NCBI GenBank assembly: GCA_040508235.1
Contig: JBEVNG010000067.1
Location: 1 to 38,035 of the forward strand
From: Polyangiales bacterium
GTDB taxonomy: Bacteria > Myxococcota_A > Polyangia > Polyangiales > DASUME01
Length of the DNA: 38,035 nucleotides
Reading direction: 5' to 3'
Shown: one piece after another, positions 4,397 to 33,201 of the stretch
Position numbering within the stretch: position 1 is the first letter of the stretch
Layout: the number at the start of each line of letters is the position of its first letter
Position numbers and translations under genes: made by a program
The notes under the pieces: model-generated
The model's input: the letters and a program-made list of their open reading frames with translations, nothing else
Database searches by the model: none
What the model was told of the DNA's origin: nothing

Positions 4397-4424
4397 TTGA
4401 CTTCGTGGGCTGTTGGCGCAGATT
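4397..4424 (+). promoter_or_regulatory. Putative sigma70-type promoter of riboswitch 1
   Basis: TTGACT (4397-4402), 16 nt spacer, CAGATT (4419-4424). Same geometry as the promoter at 7917-7944. Confidence 0.5.
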
Positions 4425-4431
4425 CGCTGGG

Positions 4432-4567
4432 TTCTGGGTCGAAGGCGCCTTTGCGACCGGAGACTGCTGCGCTGCAGCTTTAGGGAAGCCGGTTCAAGTC
4501 CGGCGCGGACCCGCCACGGTAAGAGTCTCCTCGCGAAGAGGCCTCGAGCCCGGATACCTGCCCAGAC
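4432..4567 (+). ncRNA. Cobalamin riboswitch 1, short form without the GCCACTG/GGGAAG accessory domain
   Basis: P1 TCTGGG/CCCAGA; TAGGGAAGCCGGTTCAAGTCCGGCGCGGACCCGCCACGGTAA; B12 box GAGCCCGGATACCTGCC. Lies upstream of a Co/Ni permease. Confidence 0.92.
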
Positions 4568-4704
4568 GGATGGTCCCTCTACGCCTCGGGGATGGCGCAA
4601 GGACGAGCTCGCCAGGCCGCTATTTTACGGCGTGGCGCCTTCGTTCTCGTGCTCTGCCCTTGGGCCATGCGAGCACGGATGGCGCACTTACCACGCGGTC
4701 GAAC

Positions 4705-5304
4705 ATGTTGAGCTCCCCGCTCTTGCTGGGTCTGCTGCTCGGCTTTCGCCATGCGTCGGACGCCGATCACGTGGCGACCATCGCGGCGGTGGTGGTGGGG
4801 CGCTATCGCTTGCTCGGGGCGATCCGTACGGCGTTGTTGTGGGGCCTCGGACACAGCGTGACGTTCTTCGCGGTGGGTCTGGCGATCGTGATGTTCGACC
4901 TGCACGTGCCGGAGGCATTCGAGTCGGCGGTCGATATCGCGATCGCGGCCTCGCTGCTGGTGCTCGGCGGCATCCAGCTGGTGCGGGCGCAGCGCAACCA
5001 GACCGAGCAGCCGGAGCCGCACGGGTCACGTCCGTTCTTGCTGGGCTCGCTGCACGGACTCGCGGGCTCGGCGGGTGTGGCGCTGATCGCGCTGACCACC
5101 ATCCACAGCCGGCACCAGGCGCTCTGGTACCTGGTGTTGTTCGCGATCGGCACGATCGGCGGCATGGCCGTGATCACGCTCGCGCTGGCGTGGTCGTTCC
5201 AGCTCTCGTCGTCGCTCAGCTGGGCCAAGCGTGCGCTGATCGTGGCCGCCGGCGTGGTGAGCTGCCTCTGTGGACTCAGCATCCTGCACGAGATGCTGGC
5301 ATGA
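4705..5304 (+). CDS. Nickel/cobalt permease (NiCoT/UreH-like), probable cobalt importer
   Basis: GFRHASDADH (HX4DH signature), WGLGHS and GSLHGLAGS motifs, about 6 hydrophobic segments. Start at ATG 4705; the track's longer ORF runs through the riboswitch. Confidence 0.85.
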   Translation: MLSSPLLLGLLLGFRHASDADHVATIAAVVVGRYRLLGAIRTALLWGLGHSVTFFAVGLAIVMFDLHVPEAFESAVDIAIAASLLVLGGIQLVRAQRNQTEQPEPHGSRPFLLGSLHGLAGSAGVALIALTTIHSRHQALWYLVLFAIGTIGGMAVITLALAWSFQLSSSLSWAKRALIVAAGVVSCLCGLSILHEMLA

Positions 5305-7950: not shown

Positions 7951-8165
7951 GTTCTGGGTCGATGGCGCGACTTGCTCGCGGCCGGAGACAGCGCTGGCAT
8001 GCGGTGTCGGGACTGCCCGAGACGGTGTCGGGGTAACAGGGAAGCCGGTTGAAGTCCGGCGCGGACCCGCCACGGTAAGAAGTCGAATCCTCACCACGAG
8101 GCCACTGGCGTAAGGCTGGGAAGGCGGTGAGGCTCTGGCTTCGAGCCCGGAGACCTACCCGGAAC
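7951..8165 (+). ncRNA. Cobalamin riboswitch 2, long (class I-like) form
   Basis: P1 GTTCTGGG/CCCGGAAC; AACAGGGAAGCCGGTTGAAGTCCGGCGCGGACCCGCCACGGTAA; accessory GCCACTGG...CTGGGAAGGCG; B12 box GAGCCCGGAGACCTACC. Confidence 0.95.
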
Positions 8166-8280
8166 CTCAGGATCCTTGTCTGCCTCGGGGATGGCGGAAG
8201 GACGAACAGACGTTCGGTCCGTCGTCTCTCCGGCCACGTCCGTCTCGCTCCGACCGCACCTCGAGCCTGGAGCTCGCAGG

Positions 8281-10275
8281 TTGTTCATTCGGTTCGCCAT
8301 CGTCGCGCTGCTCGTCGCATGCATGTGCGATCGTGCGCGCGCACAAGAGCCGCTGGACATCCGCGCGCGCAGCACGCGCAAGATCACCGCGACGCACGGG
8401 CTGGATCCCACGGCATCGGGCACCTCGCTCGACGTGCTCGACCGTGTGACCACGCCGCGCTCGCTTGGCGACATCGTGCGCGAGTCGCCGGGAGCGCGCG
8501 TGTTGAGCACGGGTGGGCTCGGTGCCTCGTCGACACTCAGCCTGCGCGGCGCGCAGGGCGACGAGACGCAGGTGTTGCTGGACGAGATCCCGCTCAACAC
8601 ACCCGACGGCGGCGCGTTCGATCTGAGCCTTTTCCCGGTCGAGCTGTTCTCCAAGGTGAACGTGTTTCGTGGCGGCGCGCCGGTGTGGCTCGGCTCGGGT
8701 GCCATCGGCGGCGTGCTGCAGCTGGTGCCGCGTCGTGGTGATCACAACGGCCTGTACGGTTCGCTCGGCGCGGGCTCGTTCGGCACCTACCAGGCGACCG
8801 CGGGCAGCCAGCTCTCGCTGCCGAACGGATCGTCCTCCAGCTCCGCGCTGGTGCTGCGCAGCACGCAGGGAAACTACCCGTACGTCGACGACCGCGGCAC
8901 CGCGTTCGTGCGCTCGGATGATCGCGAGTTCAAGCTCAAGAACGCGGACTTCCAGGATGCCAGCGGCTTCCAGGACTTCACGCTGCCGCTCGGCAAGGGA
9001 AGGCTGCACGTGGTCGCGCTGGGGGTCGTGCGCGGCGGCGGCCTTTCGGGGCCCGCGGCACAGCCGACGCCCAAGGTGCGCCGCGAGAGCGCGCGCGCAA
9101 TCACCGCCGCGTCCTACACGGTCGAGGGCGGTGAGGCGCTGCAGCGCAAGCTCCAAGTGGTCGCGTCGGGCTCGTACGGCGCCGACCGCTTCAACGATCT
9201 CGATGGCCAGCTCGGCCTCAGCAACCGCACCTCGACCAACAATCGCTCGTTCCGCGCGTTCCTGCGCAGCGCGGGCTCGCTCGAGCTCACGCGCTGGCTG
9301 CGCGCGGACGCGGTTGGCAGCTACGCCTTCGATGCCTTCCTCCCTCACGACCTCTACATCACTCCCGATCCCAGAGCGTCCACGCGCAACACGGTCTCGG
9401 GAGCCGCGGAGCTGATCGCGCACGGCGCGCTCGCGGGCATGCGCTGGGAGCTGCGGCCGTCCGTGCGCGTGGAGTGGAGCAACACCGAGACGCACTTCGT
9501 CAACACGCGCGGAGCCCGCGACTTCGAGCGCCGCGTGCTGGTGCCCACGGGGCGCGTGGGGGGCGTGCTCGAAGTCCACAAGGGAATCGCGCTCAGCGCG
9601 TCGTACGCCACCGGCACGCGCCTTCCGACTCTCTACGAGCTGTTCGGCGACGGCGGGCTGACCTTACCCTCGCCAGACCTCCGACCGGTGAAGTCGAAGA
9701 CCGTCGACGCCGGTGTCACCGCGAAGGGCAAGCTCGGTATCGCGCAGGGCAGCGCGGAGCTGCGCGGCTTCTGGCAGCAGCGCGCCGACTCGATCGCGAT
9801 GTTCCGTACCGCGCAATACCAGGTCGCGTACGAGAACCTGTCGTCCGTGGAGCAGTACGGCCTCGAGTCGCGCGTCGCGGGCGAGCTCACGCGCTGGTTT
9901 CGCGCGAGCGGCTCCTTTACCTGGCTGGAGACAGAGACCGCGCTCGGCACGCGCTTGCCGTTTCGTCCCAAGTTCATCGCGTTCGCGCGCCCGGAGCTGT
10001 ACGTGCCGATCGAGCGCGGCTGGCTCACGTCGGCGAGTGCCGCGACCGAGCTCTGGCATCGCGGCTTCTCGTTCTACGACGACAAGAACCTCGCCTACGC
10101 ACCGGCCTGCACCAAGGTCGGCTTCGGCGCCGGGCTCAACTTCTTTCGCGATGCGGTGCGCCTGAGCGCGCGCCTCGATGACGCGCTCGATGCGCGCTGC
10201 ACCGACCTCATCGGCTACCCGCTGCAGGGTCGCACGTTGTTCTTCAGTTTGAGCTATCGAGAGGGTGGAACGTGA
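8281..10275 (+). CDS. TonB-dependent outer-membrane receptor, probable cobalamin receptor (BtuB-like)
   Basis: Plug motifs (SLRGAQGDETQVLLDEIPLN, VNVFRGGAP..GSGAIGGVL), RLPTLYELFG, C-terminal GYPLQGRTLFFSLSY. Lies behind a B12 riboswitch. TTG 8281 with a GGAG RBS and signal peptide is preferred over the track start at 8176. Confidence 0.9.
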   Translation: MFIRFAIVALLVACMCDRARAQEPLDIRARSTRKITATHGLDPTASGTSLDVLDRVTTPRSLGDIVRESPGARVLSTGGLGASSTLSLRGAQGDETQVLLDEIPLNTPDGGAFDLSLFPVELFSKVNVFRGGAPVWLGSGAIGGVLQLVPRRGDHNGLYGSLGAGSFGTYQATAGSQLSLPNGSSSSSALVLRSTQGNYPYVDDRGTAFVRSDDREFKLKNADFQDASGFQDFTLPLGKGRLHVVALGVVRGGGLSGPAAQPTPKVRRESARAITAASYTVEGGEALQRKLQVVASGSYGADRFNDLDGQLGLSNRTSTNNRSFRAFLRSAGSLELTRWLRADAVGSYAFDAFLPHDLYITPDPRASTRNTVSGAAELIAHGALAGMRWELRPSVRVEWSNTETHFVNTRGARDFERRVLVPTGRVGGVLEVHKGIALSASYATGTRLPTLYELFGDGGLTLPSPDLRPVKSKTVDAGVTAKGKLGIAQGSAELRGFWQQRADSIAMFRTAQYQVAYENLSSVEQYGLESRVAGELTRWFRASGSFTWLETETALGTRLPFRPKFIAFARPELYVPIERGWLTSASAATELWHRGFSFYDDKNLAYAPACTKVGFGAGLNFFRDAVRLSARLDDALDARCTDLIGYPLQGRTLFFSLSYREGGT

Positions 10276-11666
10276 AACTTCGTAAAGTCTTGATCCTTGG
10301 TTGTCTGCTGGCTGCATGCGACGAGCCGCCGGAGGCCGGCGGCCCGAGCCTCCCCACGTTTCCGATGGACGGCGACGTGCCGCAGGTCCCGGACGACGCC
10401 GCGGTGCAGAGCGACGCCGCGCTGCCGAGCGATGCCGCCTCGCCGGTGGACAGCGGCCTCGACGCTGGCGCACCGGTGCGCACGGGTCCGGCGTTCGCCG
10501 TGATCAACAGCGACTGGACGTCGACCGCCATCTCGCTGCTCGACGTCGAGGGCAAGGTCCTGGCGGACAACTACCTCAACTCCGGCTCTCGCCCCGCGGG
10601 CCTGGTCACCGCGTTGTCCGGCGACGTCGAGCTGCCCAAGCGATCCGGCGAACAGGGCGTGCTCGTGATCCTCGACCGCTTCCGCACCGACGTGGTCACG
10701 CGCGTGCGCCTGTCGGACGGCGCGATCCTGGGCCAGGTCAAGACGCACACGCCGCCCGAGCAGAACACCACCAGCTCGTACTCGTCCAACCCGCACGACT
10801 ACCTCTACATCGACCCGGAGACTGCGTACGTCACGCGCAGCGAGCCCAACGTCGACACCGGCGCGCTGCCGATCGATCTCGGCGACGACCTGTTCCGCAT
10901 CAACCCGACCACGATGCAGCGCAGCGGCGAGCGCATCGACCTCGGCGTGCTCGATCAGCAGGTGATGGGCACCAGCGGCATGGTCACCGCCTACGCTCGT
11001 CCGTCGCGCATGGTGCGCCTCGGCCGCACGGTGGTGGTCGGCATCGGCCGCTCCGCGTTCGACTTTAAGGCCGTCGGCGACGGCGTGGTCGCGCTGGTGA
11101 ACCTCGACACCAAGGTCGTCACCGGCTTCCCGCTCCCCGGCCTGAAGAACTGCACCGACGTCGAGCACGTGCCCAACGACAGCGACACCGTGCTCGTCTC
11201 CTGCGGCGGCGACTGGAACACCGGCAGCAAGGCGACCGCGGGCCTCGCGCTCGTCGGCGTCAGCAACGGCACGGCGCAGGTCGAGCAGATCTGGCGCGCG
11301 GCCAACGACGCCGCCGCGACGCCGCTCACGTCGGCCACGACCTCGCTCGGCGGCACGCTCGTGGGCGCGGCGGCGAACGACTACTCCGGCAGCGGCACGG
11401 ACGTCTACGCGGTGCTCGACCTCGCGACCGGCAGCAAGACCATGATCAAGTCGATCACGCCCGGCAAGGGAGTGTTCGGCACGCCTTCGTTCGACGCCGC
11501 GAGAGGCCTGCTGCTGCTGCCCGACGCGAGCATGGACAAGGACAAGAAGCCCACCGCCGGCCTGCGCCGCTTCCAGCGCAACGCCGACGGTAGCTTCACC
11601 GAGCTGGAGCTCGTAAAGGTGGCGCCGGGCACCAACATGCCGGTGCGCCACGTCTTCCCGCTGTGA
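10272..11666 (+). CDS. Beta-propeller surface lipoprotein, candidate BtuG-like partner of the TonB receptor
   Basis: GTG overlaps the receptor stop. Lipobox LLAAC, DAA/DAG linker, YncE-like blades (SNPHD..AYVTR, ARPSRM, KNCTDV). Confidence 0.75.
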   Translation: MKLRKVLILGCLLAACDEPPEAGGPSLPTFPMDGDVPQVPDDAAVQSDAALPSDAASPVDSGLDAGAPVRTGPAFAVINSDWTSTAISLLDVEGKVLADNYLNSGSRPAGLVTALSGDVELPKRSGEQGVLVILDRFRTDVVTRVRLSDGAILGQVKTHTPPEQNTTSSYSSNPHDYLYIDPETAYVTRSEPNVDTGALPIDLGDDLFRINPTTMQRSGERIDLGVLDQQVMGTSGMVTAYARPSRMVRLGRTVVVGIGRSAFDFKAVGDGVVALVNLDTKVVTGFPLPGLKNCTDVEHVPNDSDTVLVSCGGDWNTGSKATAGLALVGVSNGTAQVEQIWRAANDAAATPLTSATTSLGGTLVGAAANDYSGSGTDVYAVLDLATGSKTMIKSITPGKGVFGTPSFDAARGLLLLPDASMDKDKKPTAGLRRFQRNADGSFTELELVKVAPGTNMPVRHVFPL

Positions 11667-23286: not shown

Positions 23287-24633
23287 ATGTCCAGCCTGCA
23301 CGAGCTCGCCTTTCTGGGCGACGGCCTGATCACGGATCCGGAGGTGATCGAGGGCTATCGCCGCGATCGCACCACGTGGGCGGAGCCCGGTGTGCCGCTG
23401 GCTCTGGTGCGGCCTCGCTCCACCTACGAGGTGCAGGCGATCGCGCGCTGGTCGACAAAGCATCGTGTGCCGCTGGTCCCGCGCGGTGCGGGCAGCGGCA
23501 TCTCCGGCGGTGCGACGGCGAGTGACGGCGCGCTGATCGTGAGCTTCGAGCGCATGAAGCAGATCGTCGAGCTCGACTCGGTGGCGATGCTCGCACGTGT
23601 GCAGCCCGGCGTGATGAACGCGGAGCTGAAGCGCGCCGCATCCGAGCAGGGCCTCTGGTATCCGCCCGATCCGTCCAGCTTCGAGATCTCTTCGATCGGC
23701 GGCAACGTCGCCACCAACGCGGGCGGCCTGTGCTGCGTGAAGTACGGCGTCACCGCGGACTACGTGCTCGGCCTGGAGGCGGTCCTGAGCGACGGCAGCG
23801 TGGTGCGCGCCGGCAGCAAGAGCCGCAAGGACGTGGCCGGATACGATCTGACCAAGCTGCTGGTCGGCTCGGAGGGAACGCTCGCGCTGATCACGGAGGT
23901 CACCGTGCGGCTGCGTCGCAGGCCTCCGCCGTCGCGCACGCTGGTAGCCACGTTCGACACGCTGGAGACGTCGGGCGCCGCGGTGGCCGCGATCGTGCGC
24001 ACGGCGGACGCGTCGCTGCTGGAGATCATGGACCGTGCGACGCTGCGCGCGGTGGAGCGGCACGCGCAGCTCGGGCTCGATGTGGGCGCGGCGGCGATGT
24101 TGATCGCGCAGACCGATGCAGGCGACCGCGAGCTACAGCAGATCGCCGCTGCGTGTGAAGCGGTGGGCGGACGTGACCTGGTCGTCTCCGAGACCGAGAC
24201 GGAGAGCCGGTTGCTGTTGGCCGCGCGCCGGCTGGCGTATCCCTCGCTGGAGAAGCTGGGCGACGTCCTGGTGGACGACGTCGCGGTGCCGATCTCTCGG
24301 CTGGCCGAGATGTTCGCGCGCATCGAGCAGCTCGCGGCCCGCACCGGCGCGCACATCGCCACCGTCGCGCACGCGGGCGACGGCAACCTGCACCCGCTGG
24401 TGGTGTTCGACCGCCGCGACCCGCAGGACGAAGCGCGCGCGCTGTCCGTGTTCGAGCAGCTGATGGACGACGCGCTCGCGCTGGGCGGCACCATCACCGG
24501 CGAGCACGGCGTGGGCACCCTCAAGCGCCCCTACCTCGCCCGTCAGCTCGGCGAAGAGATGGTGGCGCTACAGCGCCGCATCAAGCTCGCGTTCGATCCC
24601 CACGGCCTGCTCAACCCCGGCAAGGTCCTTTAG
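23287..24633 (+). CDS. FAD-linked oxidase, GlcD / D-2-hydroxyacid dehydrogenase family
   Basis: PRGAGSG.SGG, PPDPSS..SIGGNVATNAGG..KYGVT, GSEGTL, HAGDGNLH, TGEHGVG, FDP.GLLNPGK. Confidence 0.9.
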   Translation: MSSLHELAFLGDGLITDPEVIEGYRRDRTTWAEPGVPLALVRPRSTYEVQAIARWSTKHRVPLVPRGAGSGISGGATASDGALIVSFERMKQIVELDSVAMLARVQPGVMNAELKRAASEQGLWYPPDPSSFEISSIGGNVATNAGGLCCVKYGVTADYVLGLEAVLSDGSVVRAGSKSRKDVAGYDLTKLLVGSEGTLALITEVTVRLRRRPPPSRTLVATFDTLETSGAAVAAIVRTADASLLEIMDRATLRAVERHAQLGLDVGAAAMLIAQTDAGDRELQQIAAACEAVGGRDLVVSETETESRLLLAARRLAYPSLEKLGDVLVDDVAVPISRLAEMFARIEQLAARTGAHIATVAHAGDGNLHPLVVFDRRDPQDEARALSVFEQLMDDALALGGTITGEHGVGTLKRPYLARQLGEEMVALQRRIKLAFDPHGLLNPGKVL

Positions 24634-25711
24634 AACGTCGCGCGAGCCACAGCGCGAGGATGAGCCAGGCCGCGCCGCCGCGCGAGTGCAAGGCACACCC
24701 CTCGGCGCTCGACTCGATGGGCAGAGCTTCGCTCATCATGCCCGCGTCGCCCGCGCGGAGGGCGAGTGCGGCCTTGGCATCGTCGCGCAGATCGACCCAG
24801 CGAGTGGTGCAGTCGGCGCGAGCGGTCTCGGTGAGGGTGCTGTAGTCCGGGTCTTGCAGACCGGCGACGGTGAAGAGCGGGTCGCCGAGGCCGCGCTCGT
24901 CCACGCGAAACAGGTCTCCGCGCGAGCATGCGTAGAGGGTGCCGTCGACCTCGCCGAGGCACGTCACGCGCTCCGCGGTCTCGATGGGCGTGCCGCTCAA
25001 CGTGCGCAGCTTCCCATCGACCGCGACCAGGTTGCCTGCGGGACCCGCGATGTCGACACTCGCTTCGAGTAGCGGTTCGTACGCGCCGTCGAGGATGCGC
25101 CCCAGCGTCACCCACGGCGCCGAGCGCCCATGCGTGACCACGTGGAGTTGTGCAGCAGCGATGCGGAGCTGGGCGCTGGCCACGTAGCTGGGTGCGGTCC
25201 AGGTGATCGTGCGCTGCCCGGTCTCCACGGTTAGCTCGCGGTCTTCGAAGCGAAGGGTCGACCCATCACCCGCGAGCGCGTCGACCGGTTGCGCGAGCGT
25301 CCGCACCAGCTCGTTGCTGGATGCAGTGACGCGGCGCAGCTCCCAGCGCCCTTCATCCTGGAACACGACCAGCACGGCGTCCCGCTGCGACGCCGCGGCG
25401 AAGCCGAGGCCCGACTGCACGGGATGGCGCGCGACGCGACCGTCCTGCCCCACCACGAACAGCTCGTCGCTCGCGACCAGGGCGGGTCCGAAGGACGGCG
25501 CCGCTGCCGGAGCGAGCACGTAACCACCCCACGACTCGGGGCACACGAAGCGAAAGCCGTCGCCAGAGCGGTGTGCGAAGCCACCCGGTGTCAGCCGCAC
25601 GAGGGCAGCACCGCGCGCGTCCAGAGCGAGCAGCTCCGTGGTGGCTGGGGGCGCGCCGTGCGCGAGCGCGCGACTCGTGAACAGCAGCAGGCCGACGAGC
25701 CAGAGCTTCAC
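24611..25711 (-). CDS. Secreted beta-rich protein with a MYXO-CTERM-like sorting tail
   Basis: Signal peptide ending ALA/HG. C-terminus GC-linker-hydrophobic-basic (EGCALHSRGGAAWLILALWLARR). GTG overlaps the protease stop. Confidence 0.75.
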   Translation of the reverse strand: MKLWLVGLLLFTSRALAHGAPPATTELLALDARGAALVRLTPGGFAHRSGDGFRFVCPESWGGYVLAPAAAPSFGPALVASDELFVVGQDGRVARHPVQSGLGFAAASQRDAVLVVFQDEGRWELRRVTASSNELVRTLAQPVDALAGDGSTLRFEDRELTVETGQRTITWTAPSYVASAQLRIAAAQLHVVTHGRSAPWVTLGRILDGAYEPLLEASVDIAGPAGNLVAVDGKLRTLSGTPIETAERVTCLGEVDGTLYACSRGDLFRVDERGLGDPLFTVAGLQDPDYSTLTETARADCTTRWVDLRDDAKAALALRAGDAGMMSEALPIESSAEGCALHSRGGAAWLILALWLARRSKGPCRG

Positions 25712-27165
25712 AGCTCGTCCGACGCGTGCAGCAGATCCTCGATGCGCAGCTTGGCGCCGATGCTGACCTTGCTGTCGCGGTAGAGGGCCTTGACCGCACC
25801 GAGGGCTTGAGCGCGCGTGAGCTGGTTCTCGCCGTGGAGCCAGAACATCGCGGTCGCGATCTGGAAGGCATAACGCTCGTAGAACGGCACCGTCCGGTAG
25901 TTCAGGAACAGCTCACGGACGCTCTGATTGTCGTACGACTCGACGGCGTAAGCGGCGAGGTACGAACCGATTGTGAAGTCGAGCCTGGGCTTGAAGCGAT
26001 CGAGGGTCGCGAGCAGGTTGGTGCGCGCGGCCTGCTCCCCCGCCGCCACGGTGTCGGAGAGCCCTTCCATCGAATAGGAGATCGCCGTCAGGTCGAGTGA
26101 GCCGTTGAAGCGCTGCTGCTTGTCCATCGCCGTCTGCAGGCGCTTGCTCCAAACGGCGAGCTCTCCACGCGGGCACTCCTTGGCGTTCTCCTTGTTCTGC
26201 GACAGCAAGTCGGTGCGACACTCGATGAACTCGAGGGCGGCGAAGCACGACGAGATCGCACCCTGAAACGCCTCGTACGACTCGTAGTCGTCGTACGCCA
26301 GCGCTTCGTCGCAGTCGGTGCCCAGCAGCCACGCCAGCGACACCGGCTGTCCGTCGACATTCGCCTTCCAGGTGTGCGCCGCCAGGAAGGCGCCGCTGTT
26401 CGCGAGCGCTTGGTCCGCACTCAGCGAGTCCGCGAGCGAGAACACGCTGGTCGGCAGCGGCGCAGCGAGGGCACGCTGCACATCCGCGCTCGCGCTCGCG
26501 ACCGCGGTCACCTCCGCGCTGGTTCGTGTCAGCAGGTCGAAGCCCTCCGCACCGCGATGCAGCAAGCCGACCAGCTGCCCCGCGTCGTCGAGCAACGGCG
26601 AGCCGCTGCCGCCGGGCAAGCTGAACACGCTGGCGTCGAACCACGTTCCATCCGCGCTCACCACGTAGCCCGACGACCACTTCTTGAGCCGCCCGAGTGG
26701 ATGGCCGATGGCCGTGACGTGCGTGCCGACCAGCTCGCTGGCCGTGCGCGGCGCCAAGGTGAGATGGAACGGCGTGTTGATGCGCTGGGTCTTCGCTTCG
26801 TCGAGGAAGATCTGCACCGCCGCCATGTCGAGTCCCACGTCGACGTGCTGCGGCACGGCCCACACGCCGCGCGGCGACAGCGCGAGCGTGCCGCGCTGGT
26901 ACTCGAAAGACAGCGCCACCGCGCAGCCTTCGCGCGCGCAGGTGTCGCCGCCGAGCACGTGCGCGTTCGTCAGCAGCAGGCCGTCCGGCGAGATGAACGA
27001 GCCCGTGGCGGACCCGCCGGCCGGGTGCTGGATGCGCACCACCGCCGACGCCGCCTGCTTGACCATCGCCGATGCGTGCTCGATGTCGTGCAGCTCCGGA
27101 GGAGCCGCGTTGGGCAGCTCCTCCGCGCACGCCACCATCAGGAGCGCGAACGCAAAGCGCTTCAT
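25708..27165 (-). CDS. Trypsin-like (S1) serine protease lipoprotein with an unknown Cys-containing helical C-terminal domain
   Basis: Lipobox LMVAC; ATGSFIS..GLLLTNAHV (His), GLDMA (Asp), LPGGSGSP (Ser). Confidence 0.88.
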   Translation of the reverse strand: MKRFAFALLMVACAEELPNAAPPELHDIEHASAMVKQAASAVVRIQHPAGGSATGSFISPDGLLLTNAHVLGGDTCAREGCAVALSFEYQRGTLALSPRGVWAVPQHVDVGLDMAAVQIFLDEAKTQRINTPFHLTLAPRTASELVGTHVTAIGHPLGRLKKWSSGYVVSADGTWFDASVFSLPGGSGSPLLDDAGQLVGLLHRGAEGFDLLTRTSAEVTAVASASADVQRALAAPLPTSVFSLADSLSADQALANSGAFLAAHTWKANVDGQPVSLAWLLGTDCDEALAYDDYESYEAFQGAISSCFAALEFIECRTDLLSQNKENAKECPRGELAVWSKRLQTAMDKQQRFNGSLDLTAISYSMEGLSDTVAAGEQAARTNLLATLDRFKPRLDFTIGSYLAAYAVESYDNQSVRELFLNYRTVPFYERYAFQIATAMFWLHGENQLTRAQALGAVKALYRDSKVSIGAKLRIEDLLHASDEL

Positions 27166-27166
27166 G

Positions 27167-28369
27167 TCAGTGGCAGTAGTTCTGGCCGAGCGGAATGGTG
27201 ACGCTCCAGGGATAGTTCCCGAAGTTGTCGAAGCTCTTCACGATGGTGTTGGTCATCGTGTCGATGATCACGACGCGGTTGGCACCGCTGACGGCAGCCA
27301 CGACGTACTTGCCGTCGCGCGTGGTGGAGGCGGTCTCGGTGTTTCCGCCGACGGGGATGCGGTCGCGCACTTCCATCGTCTCGGTGTCCAGCACCGCGAT
27401 ATCCTTGCGCACGCGGTTCATCACGAACGCCTTGTTCGGCGCCAGCGACGAGAAGTTCACGCCGTACGCTTCCTCGTCACCCGGCAGCGTGCCGATCACC
27501 GAGGGCTCCTTGGCGCCGTTGATCACGGACACGGTCTGGTCGCCGAAGTTGGTAACCACGTGGCGCAGCGGCACGTTGCTGAAGGGGTGCTCGGCGAACG
27601 CCACCCACGGCTTCAGGCCCGCCTTGAGCTCCGTGCGCTTGGTGCGCGACATGGTGTCGTACACGATGACGCGGCCGGTCTCGTGGTGCGCGGCGTACAT
27701 CACTCCCTCGCGATCGATCTGCACGTCGCCAAAGCCACCCTCCTCGGGTGCCAGCGTCTGGTTCGGCGGCACGTCGAAGCCGTCGAGCGCGACGTGGCCA
27801 TCGATCTCGAGCGACTCCAGGTTGACGCGCGTCACGTGGTAGGCACCGATGTTCGCGACGTAGCCGAACTTTCCGTCGGGCGAGAAGCGCATGAAGTGCG
27901 GCGTGAAGAAGCCGCCCAGGCGCTTGATCTCGGTGTCGGTGTTGGTGTCGATGAACGAGACCGCGCCGGTACCCTCGTCTTCGTCCATGACCGCGAGCAC
28001 GCCGCGGCCGTCGTTGTTGGTGATGTGCGTGGGGTGCTTGCCCAGCGCGACGCGCTTGAGCACGTCGTAGTTCTTGCTGCGCGTCAGCTCGAACGTGCGC
28101 AGATCGATCACGCCGATCTCACCCGAGTCGCGGCACACGATGTACGCGCGGTTGAGCAGACCTTCCGGCGTGTTGTCCATGCCAAAGCCCTTGGCATCCA
28201 GCACCACCAGCTCGTCCTTGTCCGAGTTGGTCAGGTACACCTTGGTGAAGTCGCTGTTCAGCTCCGCCATGTGCACGCCCGGGATGCCGAGCGGATCGTC
28301 GTCGTCCTTGTTCGCCGAGCAAGCGGCGAGCACGCCGAGGAGGAGGGCCCATTTGGTCGATGCAGTCAC
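27167..28369 (-). CDS. YVTN/YncE-type beta-propeller lipoprotein, His-rich, ending in NYCH
   Basis: GAGG RBS, GTG 28369, lipobox LAAC, repeated blades (PHFMRFSPDGKFGYVAN, IPVGGNTE). First gene after riboswitch 3. Confidence 0.85.
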   Translation of the reverse strand: MTASTKWALLLGVLAACSANKDDDDPLGIPGVHMAELNSDFTKVYLTNSDKDELVVLDAKGFGMDNTPEGLLNRAYIVCRDSGEIGVIDLRTFELTRSKNYDVLKRVALGKHPTHITNNDGRGVLAVMDEDEGTGAVSFIDTNTDTEIKRLGGFFTPHFMRFSPDGKFGYVANIGAYHVTRVNLESLEIDGHVALDGFDVPPNQTLAPEEGGFGDVQIDREGVMYAAHHETGRVIVYDTMSRTKRTELKAGLKPWVAFAEHPFSNVPLRHVVTNFGDQTVSVINGAKEPSVIGTLPGDEEAYGVNFSSLAPNKAFVMNRVRKDIAVLDTETMEVRDRIPVGGNTETASTTRDGKYVVAAVSGANRVVIIDTMTNTIVKSFDNFGNYPWSVTIPLGQNYCH

Positions 28370-28467
28370 GTGATCCTCACTGTCTGCTCGTGAGGAAGAC
28401 GGGCGCGCCGCCCCTGCAAAATAGGGCAACCGACGGCCACTCCGTTTCCCGCGGAGGCTATGCCGGT

Positions 28468-28575
28468 CGCATTGGGTAAGTCTCCTGGCTTGCGTGGAGA
28501 TACTCCACGCTCACAGTGGCGGAACCGCGCCGGACTTTAACCGGCTTCCTCGTTATGCCTCGCGGCACCCAAACG
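28468..28575 (-). ncRNA. Cobalamin riboswitch 3, short form
   Basis: Reverse complement: TTTGGGTGCCGCGAGGCATAACGAGGAAGCCGGTTAAAGTCCGGCGCGGTTCCGCCACTGTGAGCGTGGAG-TAT-CTCCACGC-AAGCCAGGAGACTTACCCAA. TTGACA lies upstream at 28617-28612. Confidence 0.9.
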
Positions 28576-28692
28576 ACGTTGTCGCGGGTGACTATCTCGT
28601 GCGTAAGGTGGTGTCAAGGTTCGCCGACATCACGCAAGGCAGTCAGCGTCCGCGATGAATGTCGCGCAGCAGCGCAGCAACGGCATGACTCG

Positions 28693-29418
28693 CTACAGCG
28701 TCCGCTCGGTCCAGGCTTTGTTGCGCTCGATGCGCTCGTCGTCCGTGATCAGCGGGCAGCTCACGCAGTAGTGGCCGCTGGGGACCTTGTAGTAGAGGCA
28801 GCAGCTGGCGCGGCGGTGGTAGACGCGGGTGACGTCGCAGTGCGTGACCTCGTACGCGTGCGGGGCGTTGGCGTCGTCGGCGAAGAACGCCTGGATCGTT
28901 TGCAAGACTTCGCCTGCGCGGCCGAGCGCGGTCAACACGGGCTCGAACTGCGCGGCCCACGACGACTCGACTTGTCCCCAGAGCGCCTTGCGGGGAAAGC
29001 GCGACCAGCGCGAGAGCGCATCCACCACGGGGAGCGACTGCGCGACCAACGTGGCGTGGGCGCTCAACGTCGACAGGCGCGGCTCGATCAAGCACACGCG
29101 CTCGAACAGCGCGCCGTTCGCGCTGAAGCGTAGCCATGTATTGGCGAGCGCCAGGTCCGGCACCAAGCCGGCGAGCAGGTGAGGACCGAGCGCGGCCGCG
29201 GAGGACCAGCCGAAGCGCAGCGCGAAGGAGGCGGCGATCACCTTACGGTCGCGGGTCTGCAGACGCTCGCCGATCTGAGTGAGCAGCTCGGCGAACGGAC
29301 CGCGCTCCGGCTCGGCGAAGGCGCCGCCCTCGATCCAACCCGCCCCGGCGGGCGTGCCGAGCTCGACGACCCAGCTCGGGTTGAGCTCGCGCAGGCGCTG
29401 GTAGCTCTCGCGCAACAT
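28693..29418 (-). CDS. FhuF-like ferric reductase / [2Fe-2S] protein
   Basis: C-terminal RRASCCLYYKVPSGHYCVSCP is the FhuF C-C-x10-C-x2-C motif. ATG overlaps the nrdB stop (TGATG). Confidence 0.85.
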   Translation of the reverse strand: MLRESYQRLRELNPSWVVELGTPAGAGWIEGGAFAEPERGPFAELLTQIGERLQTRDRKVIAASFALRFGWSSAAALGPHLLAGLVPDLALANTWLRFSANGALFERVCLIEPRLSTLSAHATLVAQSLPVVDALSRWSRFPRKALWGQVESSWAAQFEPVLTALGRAGEVLQTIQAFFADDANAPHAYEVTHCDVTRVYHRRASCCLYYKVPSGHYCVSCPLITDDERIERNKAWTERTL

Positions 29419-30434
29419 CAGAACGCGGCGTCGAGGGAGACTTCGCCGGTGACGGCGACCTGGTAGGCGGAGACGCGGCGCTCGAAGAAGTTGGTGACCT
29501 CTTGCACGTCCTGCAGGTCCATGAACGCGAGCGGGTTCTTGGCGCCGTAGCGCCTGGGCATTCCAAGCGTCTTCAGGCGCTGATCGGCGCAGTACTCGAG
29601 GTACGTGCGCACGTCGCGCACCGAGAGGCCCGCGATGCCGCCGGCTAGCAGGTCCTCGGCGAACTGCGTCTCGCACTCGATCGCCTCGTCGAGCATCTCG
29701 CCGACCTGCCGCTCCAGCTGGGCGTCGAACAGCGCAGGCTCTTCCTTGCGCACGGTCTCGATCACGTCGAACGCGAAGCGCATGTGCATGCTCTCGTCGC
29801 GGAACACCCAGCTGGTGCCGGCGGACAGGCCGTGCAGCATGCCGCGCGAGCGCAGGAAGTAGACGTAGGCAAACGCGCCGAAGAAGAACAGACCCTCGAT
29901 GCAGGCCGCGAAGCAGATCAGGTTGAGCAGGAACTGCCGGCGGTCGCCAGCGTCCTGCAACCGATCCTTGTCCTGCATGCTGTCGAGCCAGCGCATGCAG
30001 AACTCGGCCTTCTTGCGGATCGACGGGATGTTCTCGACCGCTGCAAAGGCGGCGTTGCGCTCGTCAGGGTCCGGTACATAGGTGTCGAGCAGCGTGAGGT
30101 AGAACTGCACGTGCAGCGCCTCCTCGTACAGCTGCCTGGACAGGTACATGCGCGCCTCGGGCGCGTTGATGTGCTTGTAGAGGTTGAGCACCAGGTTGTT
30201 GGCGACGATCGAGTCGCCGGTGGCGAAGAACGCGACCAGCCGCTGGATCAGGTGTCGCTCGGCCGGGCTCATGCGCGCGAGGTCGCGCACGTCCGTACCG
30301 AAGTCGACCTCCTCCACCGTCCAGGTGTTCTTGATCGACGAGCGATACAGCTCGTAGAACTGCGGATACGCCATCGGGCGCAAGGTCAGGCACAGCCCGG
30401 GATCGAGCAGGCGGTTGGGTCTCTGCACACTCAC
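29418..30434 (-). CDS. nrdB: Class Ia ribonucleotide reductase beta subunit
   Basis: FFATGDSIV, EEALHVQFY (radical Tyr), IEGLFF, RDESMH, TNFFERRVSAY. GTG overlaps the nrdA stop. Confidence 0.95.
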   Translation of the reverse strand: MSVQRPNRLLDPGLCLTLRPMAYPQFYELYRSSIKNTWTVEEVDFGTDVRDLARMSPAERHLIQRLVAFFATGDSIVANNLVLNLYKHINAPEARMYLSRQLYEEALHVQFYLTLLDTYVPDPDERNAAFAAVENIPSIRKKAEFCMRWLDSMQDKDRLQDAGDRRQFLLNLICFAACIEGLFFFGAFAYVYFLRSRGMLHGLSAGTSWVFRDESMHMRFAFDVIETVRKEEPALFDAQLERQVGEMLDEAIECETQFAEDLLAGGIAGLSVRDVRTYLEYCADQRLKTLGMPRRYGAKNPLAFMDLQDVQEVTNFFERRVSAYQVAVTGEVSLDAAF

Positions 30435-32812
30435 TGGCACGCCTCGCAGCTCTCGGGGTTTTCGAGCGAGCACACCACCGCCGCCGTCGCTTCCTCGCTG
30501 CTGGAGACGGTCGCCTTCGCGATCTTGGTCGCCGGCCGCGAGCGCAGGTAGTAGGTGGTCTTGAGTCCGCTCTTCCAGGCGTAGAAGTACATCGACGACA
30601 GCTGGCCGATGTTCGGGTTCTCGATGAACAGGTTGAGCGACTGGCTCTGATCGATGAACGCACCGCGCTCGGCGGCCAGATCGATCAGGGCGCGCATCGG
30701 CAGCTCCCAGGCGGTGCGGTACACCTTCTTGAGCTCCTCGGGCAGGCTGAGTCCCTGCACCGAGCCTTCCCCGAGCTTGAGCTGGGCGCGCGTGGCCTCG
30801 GTCCACAACCCGAGCTCCTTCAGCTCGGCGACCAGGTAGCGGTTCACCTGCATGAAGTCGCCGGACAGCGTCTCGCGCTTGAACAGGTTCGACACCTGCG
30901 GCTCGATGCACTCGTAGCAGCCAGCGATCGACGCGATCGTCGCGGTGGGTGCGATGGCGATCAGCAGCGAGTTGCGCAGGCCGTGCTCGCGGATCTGCTG
31001 GCGCAGCTGATCCCAGCGCTCCTGCTGCGACGGCACCACACCCCAGGCATCGAACTGCAGCTCACCACGCGCCGCGCGTGTCTCCGCGAACGACGGATGC
31101 GCACCCTTGGCCTGCGCGAGCTCCAGCGAAGCCGACAGCGCGTGATAGTAGACCTCCTCCGAGATCCGCCGCGACAGCGCGCGCGCCTCCGTGCTGTCGA
31201 ACGCCAGCCGCAGCTTGAAGAACACGTCCTGCAGGCCCATCAGCCCGAGGCCGACCGGACGCCAGCGGTTGTTCGACGCTTTGGTGGTCGCGATCGGGTA
31301 GTAGTTGAGATCGATCACCGCATCGAGCTGACGCACGGCCGTGCGCACGGTCGACGCCAGCTTCGCGAAGTCGAAGCCCTCGCTGCCCACGTGCCTTCCG
31401 AGGTTGATGGAGCCGAGGTTGCAGACCGCGGTCTCGTCGCCCGAGGTGACCTCCAGGATCTCGGTGCACAGGTTGGAGAGGTGCACGGTGCGACCGGGCA
31501 GCGCGGTCTGGTTGCAGGCCAGGTTCGACTTGTCCTTGAACGTGATCCAGCCGTTGCCGGTCTGCGCCAGCGTGCGCATCATGCGGCCGTACAGCTCGCG
31601 CGCATTGACCGTACGCTCGGCCAGCCCCGCGCGCTCCGCCTCTTCGTACGCCTCGTCGAACGCCGGTCCGTACAGGTCGCACAGCGCGGGCACACGCTTG
31701 GGATCGAACAGCGACCACGGAGCGTTCGCCTCCACGCGGCGCATGAACAGGTCCGAGATCCAGTTGGCCAGGTTCAGGTTGTGCGTGCGCGCGGACTCGT
31801 CGCCGGTGTTGTCGCGCAGCGAGAGGAACTCCTCGATGTCCGCGTGCCAGCTCTCCAGGTACACGCAGCACGCGCCCTTGCGCTTGCCGCCCTGGTTCAC
31901 CGCCGAGACGCTGGCGTCGAGCGTCTTGAGCCACGGCACGATGCCGTTGGAGTGGCCGTTGGTGCCCTGGATCAGCGAGCCGCGCGAGCGCACGCGGTGG
32001 TACGCCAGGCCGATGCCGCCCGAGAACTTCGAGAGCATCGCGACGTCGGTGTACGTGCGGTAGATCTGCTCCAGCGAGTCGTTCGGCGAGTCGAGCAGGA
32101 AGCAGCTCGACAGCTGCTCGTGGCGCGTGCCGGCGTTGAACAGCGTGGGCGAGCTCGGGATGTACTCCAGCGCCGAGAACAGGCGGTAGAGGTCGAGCGC
32201 GTCGCCGACGTTCTCGCTCAGCGCGCAGGCGATGCGCATGAAGAACTGCTGCGGCGTCTCCAGCACCAGGCGCGTCTTGGGGTGCTTGATCAGATAGCGG
32301 TCGTAGAGCGTGCGCAGACCGAAGTACTCGAAGTTCGCGTCGCGCTCGCCGTCGATGGCGTGGTCGAGCTTGCGCGCGTTGGCGCGCACGAAGTCGAGCA
32401 GCCTGTCGTTGATCAAGCCCGCTTCCGCCGCCGCGCTCACCGACTGCGAGAACGCGTGGATGCCCTGGTTGCGCACCTCCTTGTCGACGTACGTGGACAG
32501 CAAGCGGGCAGCCAGGCGCGCATACTCGGGCTCTTCCGCGATCAACGCGGCCGCGGTCTGGATCGACAGGCGATCGAGCTCGCTGGTGGTCGCGCCGTCG
32601 TAGAGGCCGCTGATCGTCTTGGTCGCGACGCGCAGCGCATCGACACCGGGCAGACCCGCGCAGCAGCGGTTCACCGCGCGCACGATCTTGTTGACGTCCA
32701 CCGGCTCCGGAGCCCCGCTGCGCTTGGTGACGCGCATGGTGCTCTGCGGATAGCCGGAGTCGCGCGCCGTCTCCCCGCGACGCGCCGTTGCCAGATCTCC
32801 CCCATTCAACAT
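30431..32812 (-). CDS. nrdA: Class Ia ribonucleotide reductase alpha subunit with ATP cone
   Basis: VTKRSG ATP cone, SPTLFNAG, LSSCF, SNLCTEI, VCNLGS, APTAT, DQSQS, KTTYYLR, C-terminal CEAC. AAAAGGAG RBS before ATG 32812. Confidence 0.96.
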   Translation of the reverse strand: MLNGGDLATARRGETARDSGYPQSTMRVTKRSGAPEPVDVNKIVRAVNRCCAGLPGVDALRVATKTISGLYDGATTSELDRLSIQTAAALIAEEPEYARLAARLLSTYVDKEVRNQGIHAFSQSVSAAAEAGLINDRLLDFVRANARKLDHAIDGERDANFEYFGLRTLYDRYLIKHPKTRLVLETPQQFFMRIACALSENVGDALDLYRLFSALEYIPSSPTLFNAGTRHEQLSSCFLLDSPNDSLEQIYRTYTDVAMLSKFSGGIGLAYHRVRSRGSLIQGTNGHSNGIVPWLKTLDASVSAVNQGGKRKGACCVYLESWHADIEEFLSLRDNTGDESARTHNLNLANWISDLFMRRVEANAPWSLFDPKRVPALCDLYGPAFDEAYEEAERAGLAERTVNARELYGRMMRTLAQTGNGWITFKDKSNLACNQTALPGRTVHLSNLCTEILEVTSGDETAVCNLGSINLGRHVGSEGFDFAKLASTVRTAVRQLDAVIDLNYYPIATTKASNNRWRPVGLGLMGLQDVFFKLRLAFDSTEARALSRRISEEVYYHALSASLELAQAKGAHPSFAETRAARGELQFDAWGVVPSQQERWDQLRQQIREHGLRNSLLIAIAPTATIASIAGCYECIEPQVSNLFKRETLSGDFMQVNRYLVAELKELGLWTEATRAQLKLGEGSVQGLSLPEELKKVYRTAWELPMRALIDLAAERGAFIDQSQSLNLFIENPNIGQLSSMYFYAWKSGLKTTYYLRSRPATKIAKATVSSSEEATAAVVCSLENPESCEACQ

Positions 32813-32933
32813 CTCGCGCTCCTTTTTCAGCCGCGAGAGGACGTGGTGAGACGGACGCACGAAGGGCGCCTCGATCGCACCCTTCCGCCCTCCCACGAGG
32901 CTCCTGGGTCATCGCGCGCCATCTCGACGCACG

Positions 32934-33118
32934 GCACAGGCAGGTCTTCGGGCTCACGAGCTCACCGATCGAGATCGGCTTCCTACTGTTCACCGCTTCC
33001 CAGTCTTGCGACCAGTGCTCGAGGTGAAGGTCGTTCTCGCTTACCGCTGCGGGGCAGCCCCGGAATCGAACCGGGTTCCCTTTTCAGCTCCGACGAAAGA
33101 GTGTCGGAGCACCTGTGC
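32934..33118 (-). ncRNA. Cobalamin riboswitch 4, long (class I-like) form, upstream of nrdAB
   Basis: Reverse complement: GCACAGGTGCTCCGAC..GTCGGAGCTGAAAAGGGAACCCGGTTCGATTCCGGGGCTGCCCCGCAGCGGTAA...GCACTGG...CTGGGAAGCG...GAGCCCGAAGACCTGCCTGTGC. Confidence 0.96.
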
Positions 33119-33121
33119 GAC

Positions 33122-33201
33122 TCACGATATATGGGCTCCGACCGTGTCCTGTCAAACGAGATGTTGGGGTTGGTCGTTCGTGATCCCCCTACAGGTCGGG
33201 G
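33122..33201. promoter_or_regulatory. Three NrdR boxes at 32 bp spacing over the nrdA promoter
   Basis: TCACGATATATGGGCT (33122), AAACGAGATGTTGGGG (33154), CCCCTACAGGTCGGGG (33186) against consensus acaCwAtATaTwGtgt. Minus-strand TTGACA at 33155-33150. Confidence 0.75.

Follow-up and report, generated by a model that had tools for sequence, protein, structure and literature searches.

A beta-propeller lipoprotein behind a cobalamin riboswitch as a candidate accessory of cobalt supply in B12-producing Polyangia

The subject of this analysis is an operon of three genes that follows a cobalamin riboswitch (24611-28617, minus strand) in a Polyangiales bacterium (GCA_040508235.1), known from a soil assembly that is 72% complete; the window is the whole contig JBEVNG010000067.1, a stretch of 38 kb (38,035 nucleotides) with 68% G+C. 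The first gene, which is also the only widely conserved one, encodes an exported, lipid-anchored beta-propeller with eight predicted blades, and we propose that this B12-repressed operon serves, through its propeller, the supply of cobalt for de novo cobalamin synthesis, a reading to which we assign a probability of about 0.5. Little is known of how cobalt passes the cell envelope in Gram-negative producers of B12, and the propeller is a candidate for the missing step, as it is conserved, riboswitch-controlled and exported, is encoded before cobalt importers of four classes, and was detected in corrin producers only. If this is true, at least several hundred database proteins that are now labelled YncE or cytochrome D1 would need relabelling. 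The second and third genes give a narrower finding, as a protease of the secreted type and a surface protein appear to have joined a B12 regulon of soil Polyangia only recently. The predicted link to cobalt is well supported by comparative genomics, whereas the story of the protease is the weakest part. In the full-text literature, with most subscription journals outside the coverage of the search, we found no account of such a propeller or of a protease in a B12 regulon.

The operon and its riboswitch

The features of the operon are, in the direction of transcription:

28612-28617, minus strand: TTGACA hexamer, possible -35 element (read from the sequence)
28458-28586, minus strand: cobalamin riboswitch 3, that of the propeller operon (Rfam, 60.3 bits)
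28374-28396, minus strand: hairpin of 7 pairs with a 9-nt loop and the Shine-Dalgarno sequence GAGGA (28378-28374) in its 3' arm (minimum free energy (MFE) and centroid folds)
27167-28369, minus strand: predicted eight-bladed YVTN/YncE-type beta-propeller lipoprotein (PROP), 400 aa (Pfam, NCBIfam, AlphaFold2 (AF2))
25708-27165, minus strand: S1 (V8/Spl-like) serine endopeptidase lipoprotein with a C-terminal helical-repeat domain of ~260 aa (Pfam, alignment)
24611-25711, minus strand: small beta-propeller that is predicted to start with His in its mature form and ends in a MYXO-CTERM-like anchor (alignment of 12 homologues, AF2)

The initial annotation had described this region as a short cobalamin riboswitch with its own TTGACA in front of three tightly coupled exported genes, and most of this description holds. 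The RNA is an ordinary cobalamin riboswitch of the short form (129 nt), with an RF00174 match of 60.3 bits against a gathering cut-off of 31.5 (E 1.1e-12) that spans the model positions 1-189. The aptamer is on the same strand as the genes and lies in their 5' leader, with 88 nt between its end and the GTG at 28369. This GTG is the likeliest start of the propeller gene and has the GAGGA 5 nt upstream; an alternative TTG at 28429 falls within the leader. Cobalamin binding and repression are predicted from the membership in the RNA family, and the hairpin over the Shine-Dalgarno sequence, which is present in both the MFE and the centroid fold of 28350-28600 (whole-leader z -2.76), is a candidate expression platform that would switch between a covered and a free ribosome binding site. 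The TTGACA is present (28617-28612) and is a possible -35 element, but a sigma-70 consensus scan of 24400-28800 gave 0 promoter-like sites because no acceptable -10 element follows, the hexamer 17 nt downstream being TAGTCA with a 2/6 match to TATAAT.

The riboswitches in front of propeller orthologues are mostly longer, with 185-230 nt and 75-112 bits at most orthologous loci and 231 nt at the closest relative, L014. The short form (128-142 nt, 56-62 bits) was seen at three loci, which are the window (28458-28586), L059 (7469-7596) and L051 (7658-7799). The ligand preference of the short form may differ from that of the long form.

The three open reading frames (ORFs) downstream of the riboswitch (27167-28369, 25708-27165 and 24611-25711) are separated by a 1-nt gap (27166) between the first and the second gene and share a 4-nt GTGA overlap (25708-25711) between the second and the third, so that the coupling described initially stands by coordinates, and because of this tight packing co-transcription is the simplest reading. 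The G+C content at third codon positions (GC3) is 0.84-0.91 in all three frames, a codon bias typical of real genes, and terminator-like sites within the operon are at chance level (2 found, 2.1 expected). Signal peptide cleavage sites and lipoboxes of the products were read by eye with the (-3,-1) rule. A complex prediction with residues 25-400 of the propeller, 18-325 of the third protein and 225-485 of the protease, its C-terminal domain, scored 0.00 against a mark of 0.32 and weighs neither way. The stretch 24611-28617 was found as contigs in five sequencing runs, from soil or other sources, with no RNA run listed among them.

The propeller family and its gene partners

The propeller matches PF21783 (YNCE) with 48.6 bits against a cut-off of 27.1 and the YVTN repeat model TIGR02276 with 58.2 against 27.85, and its family profile finds 1l0q among the solved structures with an E-value of 5.4e-35. 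Its lipobox ends in LAAC17, with Cys17 invariant among 88 homologues; this alignment combines 79 of the 120 listed matches with 9 locus translations, short and partial matches having been excluded by eye. The AF2 model has a predicted local distance difference test score (pLDDT) of 93.3 and about 31-33 strands (31 of at least 3 residues), which we read as probably eight blades, and the two top matches of a fold search against representatives (Z 32.8 and 32.1) are proteins that we take to be eight-bladed propellers. The protein had been called His-rich. With 11 His in 400 aa (2.75%) this is not borne out by composition, but 8 of these 11 are at least 93% conserved across the 88 homologues, as are C399 and H400 at the extreme C-terminus, and six of the conserved His (33, 112, 115, 158, 178 and 228) were placed at strand ends on one face, as deduced from the topology.

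More than 579 homologues of the propeller are known, nearly all from metagenome bins of Myxococcota/Polyangia, and they carry only generic names such as 'DNA-binding beta-propeller fold protein YncE' or 'cytochrome D1 domain-containing protein'. We collected 43 genomic propeller loci, of which 33 were searched with Rfam and six more were scanned as L014-L019, while L023, L048, L050 and L063 lack an upstream flank. Of the 39 loci with an upstream flank, 36 have an RF00174 riboswitch before the propeller and on its strand (6/6, 12/12, 11/13 and 7/8 in the individual sets); in L042 and L044 one gene, CbiX, stands between riboswitch and propeller. As a family, the propeller is a conserved element and a genuine member of the B12 regulon.

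The genes downstream of the propeller were called with a GC3-based ORF caller, clustered by BLAST and named by Pfam searches with one representative per cluster; the caller mis-strands some genes, among them the third gene in L021 and L023 and probably the binding protein in L041. The commonest order is riboswitch, propeller, Peripla_BP_2, FecCD, ABC ATPase, CbiX (as a fusion with a 2Fe-2S ferredoxin), DUF3209, an FAD-binding protein, CbiD, CbiC and CbiE/T, and in 14 loci it is Peripla_BP_2, followed by FecCD and the ABC ATPase, that comes directly after the propeller. At other loci the gene in this position encodes HupE/UreJ (L022, 114 bits, after a 60-nt gap), CbiM (L052, 188 bits, after an 8-nt gap, with an ABC ATPase further on), a CDF cation-efflux protein (L031), PepSY_TM (4 loci) or CobN (L043 and L058), and in L057 the propeller is followed by CobA, CobW and CobN. 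Across lineages, riboswitch control is thus combined with adjacency to four types of cobalt importer, namely HupE/UreJ, CbiM, CDF and BtuF/CbtJ-like ABC systems, or to the cobalt chelatases CbiX and CobN/CobW, the pattern that we looked for in a cobalt-uptake gene. A TonB receptor was not detected in any of the 43 loci at E<=1e-4 (tblastn with the receptor of the window as query, a search that a very divergent receptor could escape), and none of the conserved neighbour clusters is a TonB receptor by Pfam searches with their representatives.

Several observations at these loci deserve mention in their own right. In L039 (334-2492), two riboswitches stand back to back, with one called gene between them; one drives a divergent CbiM, 3 kb upstream of the propeller start, and the other drives the propeller. 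DUF3209 (L030 13015-13497; cluster 5, 10 loci) is a steady member of the cbi operons, in L030 located directly after CbiX and before the FAD-binding and CbiD genes, and it appears to be an uncharacterised but conserved member of a variant of the B12 pathway. In the cultured Vitiosangium sp. GDMCC 1.1324 (L029, 7404-11522), riboswitch, propeller and PepSY_TM are followed, 132 nt on, by a Peptidase_S41 gene, a second protease near the propeller that is unrelated to that of the window. Behind the propeller of L024 (8001-10908), a near relative of the clade with the protease, come genes for a putative cyclase (PF04199) and for a GH25 muramidase that carries a peptidoglycan-binding domain.

The phyletic distribution points in the same direction as the gene partners. 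At E<=1e-30, the propeller profile found its target in 6 of 401 genomes of the phylum, and the corrin-synthesis marker CbiC (PF02570) was found in the same six (G000, which is the genome of the window, G655, G691, G699, G731 and G743). CbiC and CobN are present in the window genome and its four congeners (5/5). RF00174 occurs in 142 of 151 sampled genomes of the same phylum, a sample that is apparently a subset of the 401, judging from the overlapping genome lists, and among these only G000 belongs to the six with propeller and CbiC. B12 users without the propeller are therefore the rule, and the co-occurrence with CbiC, set against the wide distribution of the riboswitch, indicates that the propeller travels with B12 synthesis and not with B12 use. 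HupE/UreJ and CbiM are transporters of metal ions, not of corrinoids. In addition, CbtJKL, a BtuF-like ABC system under control of a B12 riboswitch, is a proven Co(II) importer, and no cobalt-specific outer-membrane receptor is confirmed, according to the accessible part of the account in PMC7689651. Together, this makes a role in providing cobalt for the de novo synthesis of B12 more likely than a BtuG-like scavenging of corrinoids, as predicted from genome comparison. The initial annotation had left the choice between cobalamin and cobalt scavenging; the cobalt option fits the comparative data, and the analogy to BtuG is not supported by them.

In the mechanism that we propose, a low level of adenosylcobalamin would cause the riboswitch to free the Shine-Dalgarno sequence, and all three proteins would be made. 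The propeller, periplasmic or attached to one leaflet of a membrane, would bind Co(II) or a small complex of cobalt where its central channel opens, in a conserved pocket that His, Cys, Trp, Asn and Gln would line. From there the metal would pass to the cobalt importer of the inner membrane, of whichever type the cell possesses. In the window genome, one candidate for this hand-over is the HupE/UreJ-type permease under its own riboswitch (4419-4579). In the lineage of the window, the importer gene that usually follows the propeller would have been replaced by the lipoprotein serine endopeptidase and the surface-anchored small propeller with its N-terminal His; both are co-regulated by position and may widen the capture to protein-bound or complexed metal, or may be passengers. 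The data show the riboswitch, the gene content, the place of the family in the B12 regulon and its gene partners; cobalt as the ligand, the position of the pocket, the transfer of the metal and any part played by the protease are what we infer.

The protease and the third protein

The second gene encodes a lipoprotein protease with an intact H/D/S triad, as had been noted initially. It matches PF13365 (Trypsin_2) with 73.3 bits against a cut-off of 27.6, and the triad H69, D113 and S187 as well as the lipobox cysteine C13 (MVAC13) are invariant in 66 homologues, an alignment that comprises 66 of 91 matches. The nearest solved sequences are secreted staphylococcal proteases of the Spl/Jep/V8 type. 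The C-terminal domain of ~260 aa resembles TPR/HEAT-like helical repeats, with TM-scores of 0.40-0.50 only, and a protein atlas search with this domain gave no feature match.

The third protein has the sorting signals that the initial annotation ascribed to it. A cleavage site of the form ASA|HGxPPA, which would leave a His at the mature N-terminus, is found in 11/11 homologues that have an N-terminus, and all 12 of the 12 homologues have a tail with Gly-Cys (G338-C339, invariant), a hydrophobic stretch and an Arg cluster. A MYXO-CTERM motif consists of a C-terminal Gly-Cys, a hydrophobic helix and a basic tail, and one homologue is named 'MYXO-CTERM domain-containing protein' in its source. 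Searches with the third protein found no Pfam match and no NCBIfam family at E<=0.1, including the curated MYXO-CTERM model; short tail models often miss when they are run on a whole protein. An invariant H96 and four Cys are also common to the homologues. The AF2 model (pLDDT 82.8) is a beta-propeller with a helix at 295-323 and a terminal transmembrane helix at 346-360, and it matches only generic propellers, with a top Z of 15.4. A kinship of the third protein with BtuG was considered and is not claimed, as BtuG1 (Z 14.6) ties with WD40 proteins. The nearest atlas clusters are BNR/sortilin-like proteins of Myxococcota (0.90), which is a lead only.

The two genes have a distribution that is very different from that of the propeller. 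L021 (the same as L014) and L023 (the same as L020), both from the genus of the window, are the only ones among the 43 propeller loci in which the protease comes after the propeller. The protease itself has 91 full-length homologues, including proteins of cultured Pendulispora species with 38-39% identity. From metagenome contigs we kept 80 protease loci; the closest three (L074-L076, 60-65% identity) have the propeller directly upstream, and L076 also has the riboswitch. The other 77 loci, of which 43 extend 1.5 kb or more upstream, yielded neither propeller nor third gene nor riboswitch, the riboswitch check having been made with Rfam on 15 of them, plus L076, and on the other 62 with our own nhmmer profile, whose sensitivity was checked solely through the recovery of L076. 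In a class-level sample, a protease homologue (~39% identity) was found in 4 of 400 other genomes, and none of these four loci has a riboswitch, a propeller or the third gene. In a quick maximum-likelihood tree of 41 propellers, with support from the Shimodaira-Hasegawa-like approximate likelihood ratio test (SH-aLRT) only, the window and L021 form a tip clade (SH-aLRT 100) that is nested among transporter-linked propellers; L023 and L048 were dropped from this tree (<340 aa), and L063 had no gene call. The next relatives of this clade are L022, where HupE/UreJ follows the propeller, and L024, with the cyclase and the GH25 muramidase.

The pairing of propeller and protease is thus confined to a single tip clade, comprising the window as well as two loci from genomes and three from metagenomes. 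Because of this limitation, and because the distant homologues of the protease lack a B12 context, the protease and the third gene appear to be recent recruits to the propeller operon. The synteny of riboswitch and three genes that the initial annotation proposed to examine across Myxococcota is therefore conserved for riboswitch and propeller, and not for the protease and the third gene; the idea of the protease as a general part of a B12 system is not supported, and homologues without riboswitch or B12 context, which had been named beforehand as evidence against the proposed system, do exist in the case of the protease. As a side observation, L072 (452-3352) contains a distant protease homologue that is preceded by a 462-aa protein with a hydrophobic stretch and a basic tail at its C-terminus, recalling the anchor of the third gene; a sequence similarity of this protein to the third gene was not detected.

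These data raise the question of whether the two genes have any functional tie to B12 or cobalt, or whether they are passengers that were inserted behind a stand-alone unit of riboswitch and propeller. The second option is suggested by a propeller that is on its own or opposite to convergent genes in L033, L038, L039, L051, L060 and L061, by a protease family that otherwise has no B12 context, and by intergenic gaps of ~140 and ~110 nt, instead of overlaps, in G006. On the other hand, the order is kept across relatives down to ~57-60% protease identity, the coupling in the window is tight, and the third gene, with its 12 homologous sequences, is known only from the context of the propeller operon. 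We therefore consider it possible, though rather doubtful, that protease and third gene are mere passengers.

Cobalt or corrinoid

The proposal that the propeller serves cobalt supply has to be weighed against a number of observations that do not fit it or that weaken the evidence for it. No riboswitch was found by Rfam at L060, L061 and L062, which carry the most distant propellers (~34% identity). The co-occurrence with CbiC is based on six genomes from three families, in which kin are not independent, and it may in part reflect the co-inheritance of a single operon, as the propeller often lies inside cbi operons. Most neighbour names depend on the single representative of each BLAST cluster, and the propeller in the window itself has no adjoining transporter. 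The Peripla_BP_2 partners score equally weakly against BtuF and against haem and F420 binders, and because these types of binder are not separated, the scores cannot choose between cobalt and corrinoid. The clustering of the conserved His on the propeller is deduced from topology rules, not from model coordinates. The presumed pocket also has conserved Trp, Tyr, Asn and Gln, and this is the chemistry by which BtuG2 binds B12, as far as the accessible part of the BtuG2 study describes it (PMC10404256). Finally, the eight-bladed cytochrome cd1, NirN and NirF, which hold tetrapyrroles, rank among the fold or sequence matches of the propeller.

Alternatively, the propeller may be a binder of corrinoids or other tetrapyrroles in the manner of BtuG or NirF, with cobalamin, cobinamide or a pathway intermediate in its channel, and may feed a BtuFCD-like ABC importer. 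The riboswitch control and the Peripla_BP_2/FecCD/ABC genes directly downstream in 14 loci agree with this, as does the resemblance of the presumed pocket to that of BtuG2. PF02239 (Cytochrom_D1) scores above its cut-off (30.6 bits against 25.5, over 291-399), the fold search found cytochrome cd1 with Z 29.5 (root-mean-square deviation (rmsd) 2.8, 314 aligned) and NirN with Z 26.3, and the profile search found NirF at 9e-10 and BtuG2/3 at ~2e-7. Against it stands the direct coupling to HupE/UreJ, CbiM and CDF, which move ions rather than corrinoids, as well as the finding that no TonB receptor was detected in the 43 loci with the window receptor as query. Likewise, the restriction of the propeller to 6 of 401 genomes, all with CbiC, is difficult to reconcile with a scavenging role when riboswitches are present in 142 of 151. 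BtuG2 (Z 22.9, rmsd 4.0) matches no better than unrelated WD40 propellers, the top match being at 32.8. A corrinoid ligand is therefore unlikely in our view, and we continue to prefer cobalt supply.

The comparison with BtuG, which the initial annotation had used as an analogy, is instructive. The two share control by a riboswitch, a lipid anchor, a beta-propeller fold of the YVTN/YncE superfamily and a locus related to B12. The sequence matches to the BtuG2/3 chains (2e-5 with the single sequence and ~2e-7 with the profile) cover 70-130 residues and are weaker than those to YncE, NirF and the beta subunit of hydrazine synthase. BtuG has seven blades and caps the TonB transporter BtuB, according to the available part of PMC10404256, whereas the propeller has eight blades in its model, no TonB receptor was detected at its 43 loci, its partners are ion transporters and chelatases, and it was found only in corrin producers. 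The part of the study by Wexler et al. (2018) that was at hand reports that BlastP found no BtuG homologues outside Bacteroidetes (PMC6143338). We have therefore rejected a membership of the propeller in BtuG on the grounds of blade number and receptor partnership, and the analogy is reduced to a kinship at the level of the superfamily.

The same regulatory logic and operon neighbourhoods are found with the cobalt importers CbtJKL, HupE/UreJ and CbiMNQO, and the propeller is the first gene before members of each class. These systems are membrane transporters or their binding proteins. Extra extracytoplasmic components exist in nickel ECF systems with NikK and NikL. The accessible part of PMC7689651 lists no propeller component for CbtJKL, HupE/UreJ or CbiMNQO. 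The best-scoring bacterial fold relatives are the d1 domain of cytochrome cd1 and NirN, which, together with NirF, are eight-bladed and periplasmic like the propeller; they share only 13-15% identity with it, WD40 propellers score equally or higher, and there is no nir context. The complex Rv3035-FecB (9p3f), a mycobacterial propeller with a Peripla_BP_2-type protein that we characterise here from the title of the entry alone, aligns with Z 24.2 (rmsd 3.1, 309 aligned) and echoes the gene pairs of the 14 loci, but its score is no better than that of many unrelated propellers. From these comparisons, a new accessory of cobalt uptake under riboswitch control would be the more fitting description of the propeller.

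A possible role for the protease

If the three genes have a common function, two related scenarios come to mind. In the first, the propeller family would be a dedicated extracytoplasmic device of Gram-negative B12 producers for cobalt capture, acting between the environment and the inner-membrane importers, which in this lineage has been joined by the surface protease and by a His-brace-like surface propeller to form a B12-repressed machine that obtains cobalt or corrinoids from the proteins of prey or detritus; we regard this extended version as improbable. In the second, which was the original idea, the surface protease would digest corrinoid-loaded proteins of prey or detritus under B12 starvation, and the two propellers would capture the freed B12 or cobalt. 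Three exported genes are indeed translationally packed behind one riboswitch, and the window, L021/L014 and L023/L020 all show the order of propeller, protease and third gene, which L074-L076 show in part and which is kept down to ~57-60% protease identity. At least 7 contigs, matched by size, are apparently common to the close propeller and protease matches, the protease is of the secreted V8/Spl type and not an HtrA chaperone-protease, and two further lineages have other lytic enzymes close to the propeller, namely Peptidase_S41 in L029 and the GH25 muramidase in L024. Yet the association is limited to a tip clade inside the transporter-linked propellers (SH-aLRT 100), the 77 distant metagenome loci and the 4 genome loci of the protease lack propeller, third gene and riboswitch, the organism makes its own B12, and nothing links the protease to corrinoid proteins. 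A digestion of corrinoid-loaded proteins is therefore very unlikely.

Equally remote is the idea of the propeller as a metalloenzyme outside the cytoplasm, its metal centre ligated by His as in N2O reductase or thiocyanate dehydrogenase, that acts on a cobalt complex or another substrate of B12 synthesis instead of binding it passively: the eight highly conserved His, the invariant C-terminal Cys-His, the PepSY_TM partners in 4 loci (a family linked to periplasmic metal reduction) and weak matches to NosZ of the lactonase type (5.7e-9), to the beta subunit of hydrazine synthase (2.3e-8) and to thiocyanate dehydrogenases (2.5e-6 to 1e-4) would agree with it, but these matches are far below the family cut-offs and span one to three blades, no conserved redox partner lies beside the propeller, and the varied transporter partners suit a role in delivery better.

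Other B12- and cobalt-related genes of the window

The contig forms an island of genes related to B12 and cobalt. Rfam finds 4 cobalamin riboswitches (RF00174) in the window and 6 across the whole assembly; those of the window other than that of the propeller operon are:

4419-4579, plus strand: cobalamin riboswitch 1 (Rfam, 60.6 bits)
7992-8176, plus strand: cobalamin riboswitch 2 (Rfam, 100.5 bits)
32922-33131, minus strand: cobalamin riboswitch 4 (Rfam, 118.3 bits)

Downstream of riboswitch 1 (region 4419-5304, plus strand), a membrane protein of ~200 aa starts at ATG 4702. It matches HupE_UreJ_2 with 28.6 bits against a cut-off of 24.5, and NicO weakly, and this HupE/UreJ-type protein is likely a B12-repressed cobalt permease, as judged from its sequence and position. 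Riboswitch 2 is followed by the TonB-dependent receptor (8176-10275, plus strand) and a 464-aa lipoprotein (10272-11666, plus strand; lipobox LLAAC), for which no Pfam, NCBIfam or PDB sequence match was found. By its place beside the receptor, this lipoprotein is a better-placed candidate for a BtuG-like receptor partner than the propeller.

The window also encodes two BtuF-like binding proteins, a FecCD/ABC pair, a methylmalonyl-CoA-mutase-like protein and the B12-independent methionine synthase MetE (3-2892). No riboswitch was detected for MetE in the window, and a divergent gene for a LysR-type regulator overlaps its start region. Riboswitch 4 precedes the class I ribonucleotide reductase NrdA and NrdB together with an FhuF-like protein (FhuF-C domain), and this operon (28693-33131, minus strand) lies on the same strand as the propeller operon and immediately upstream of it.

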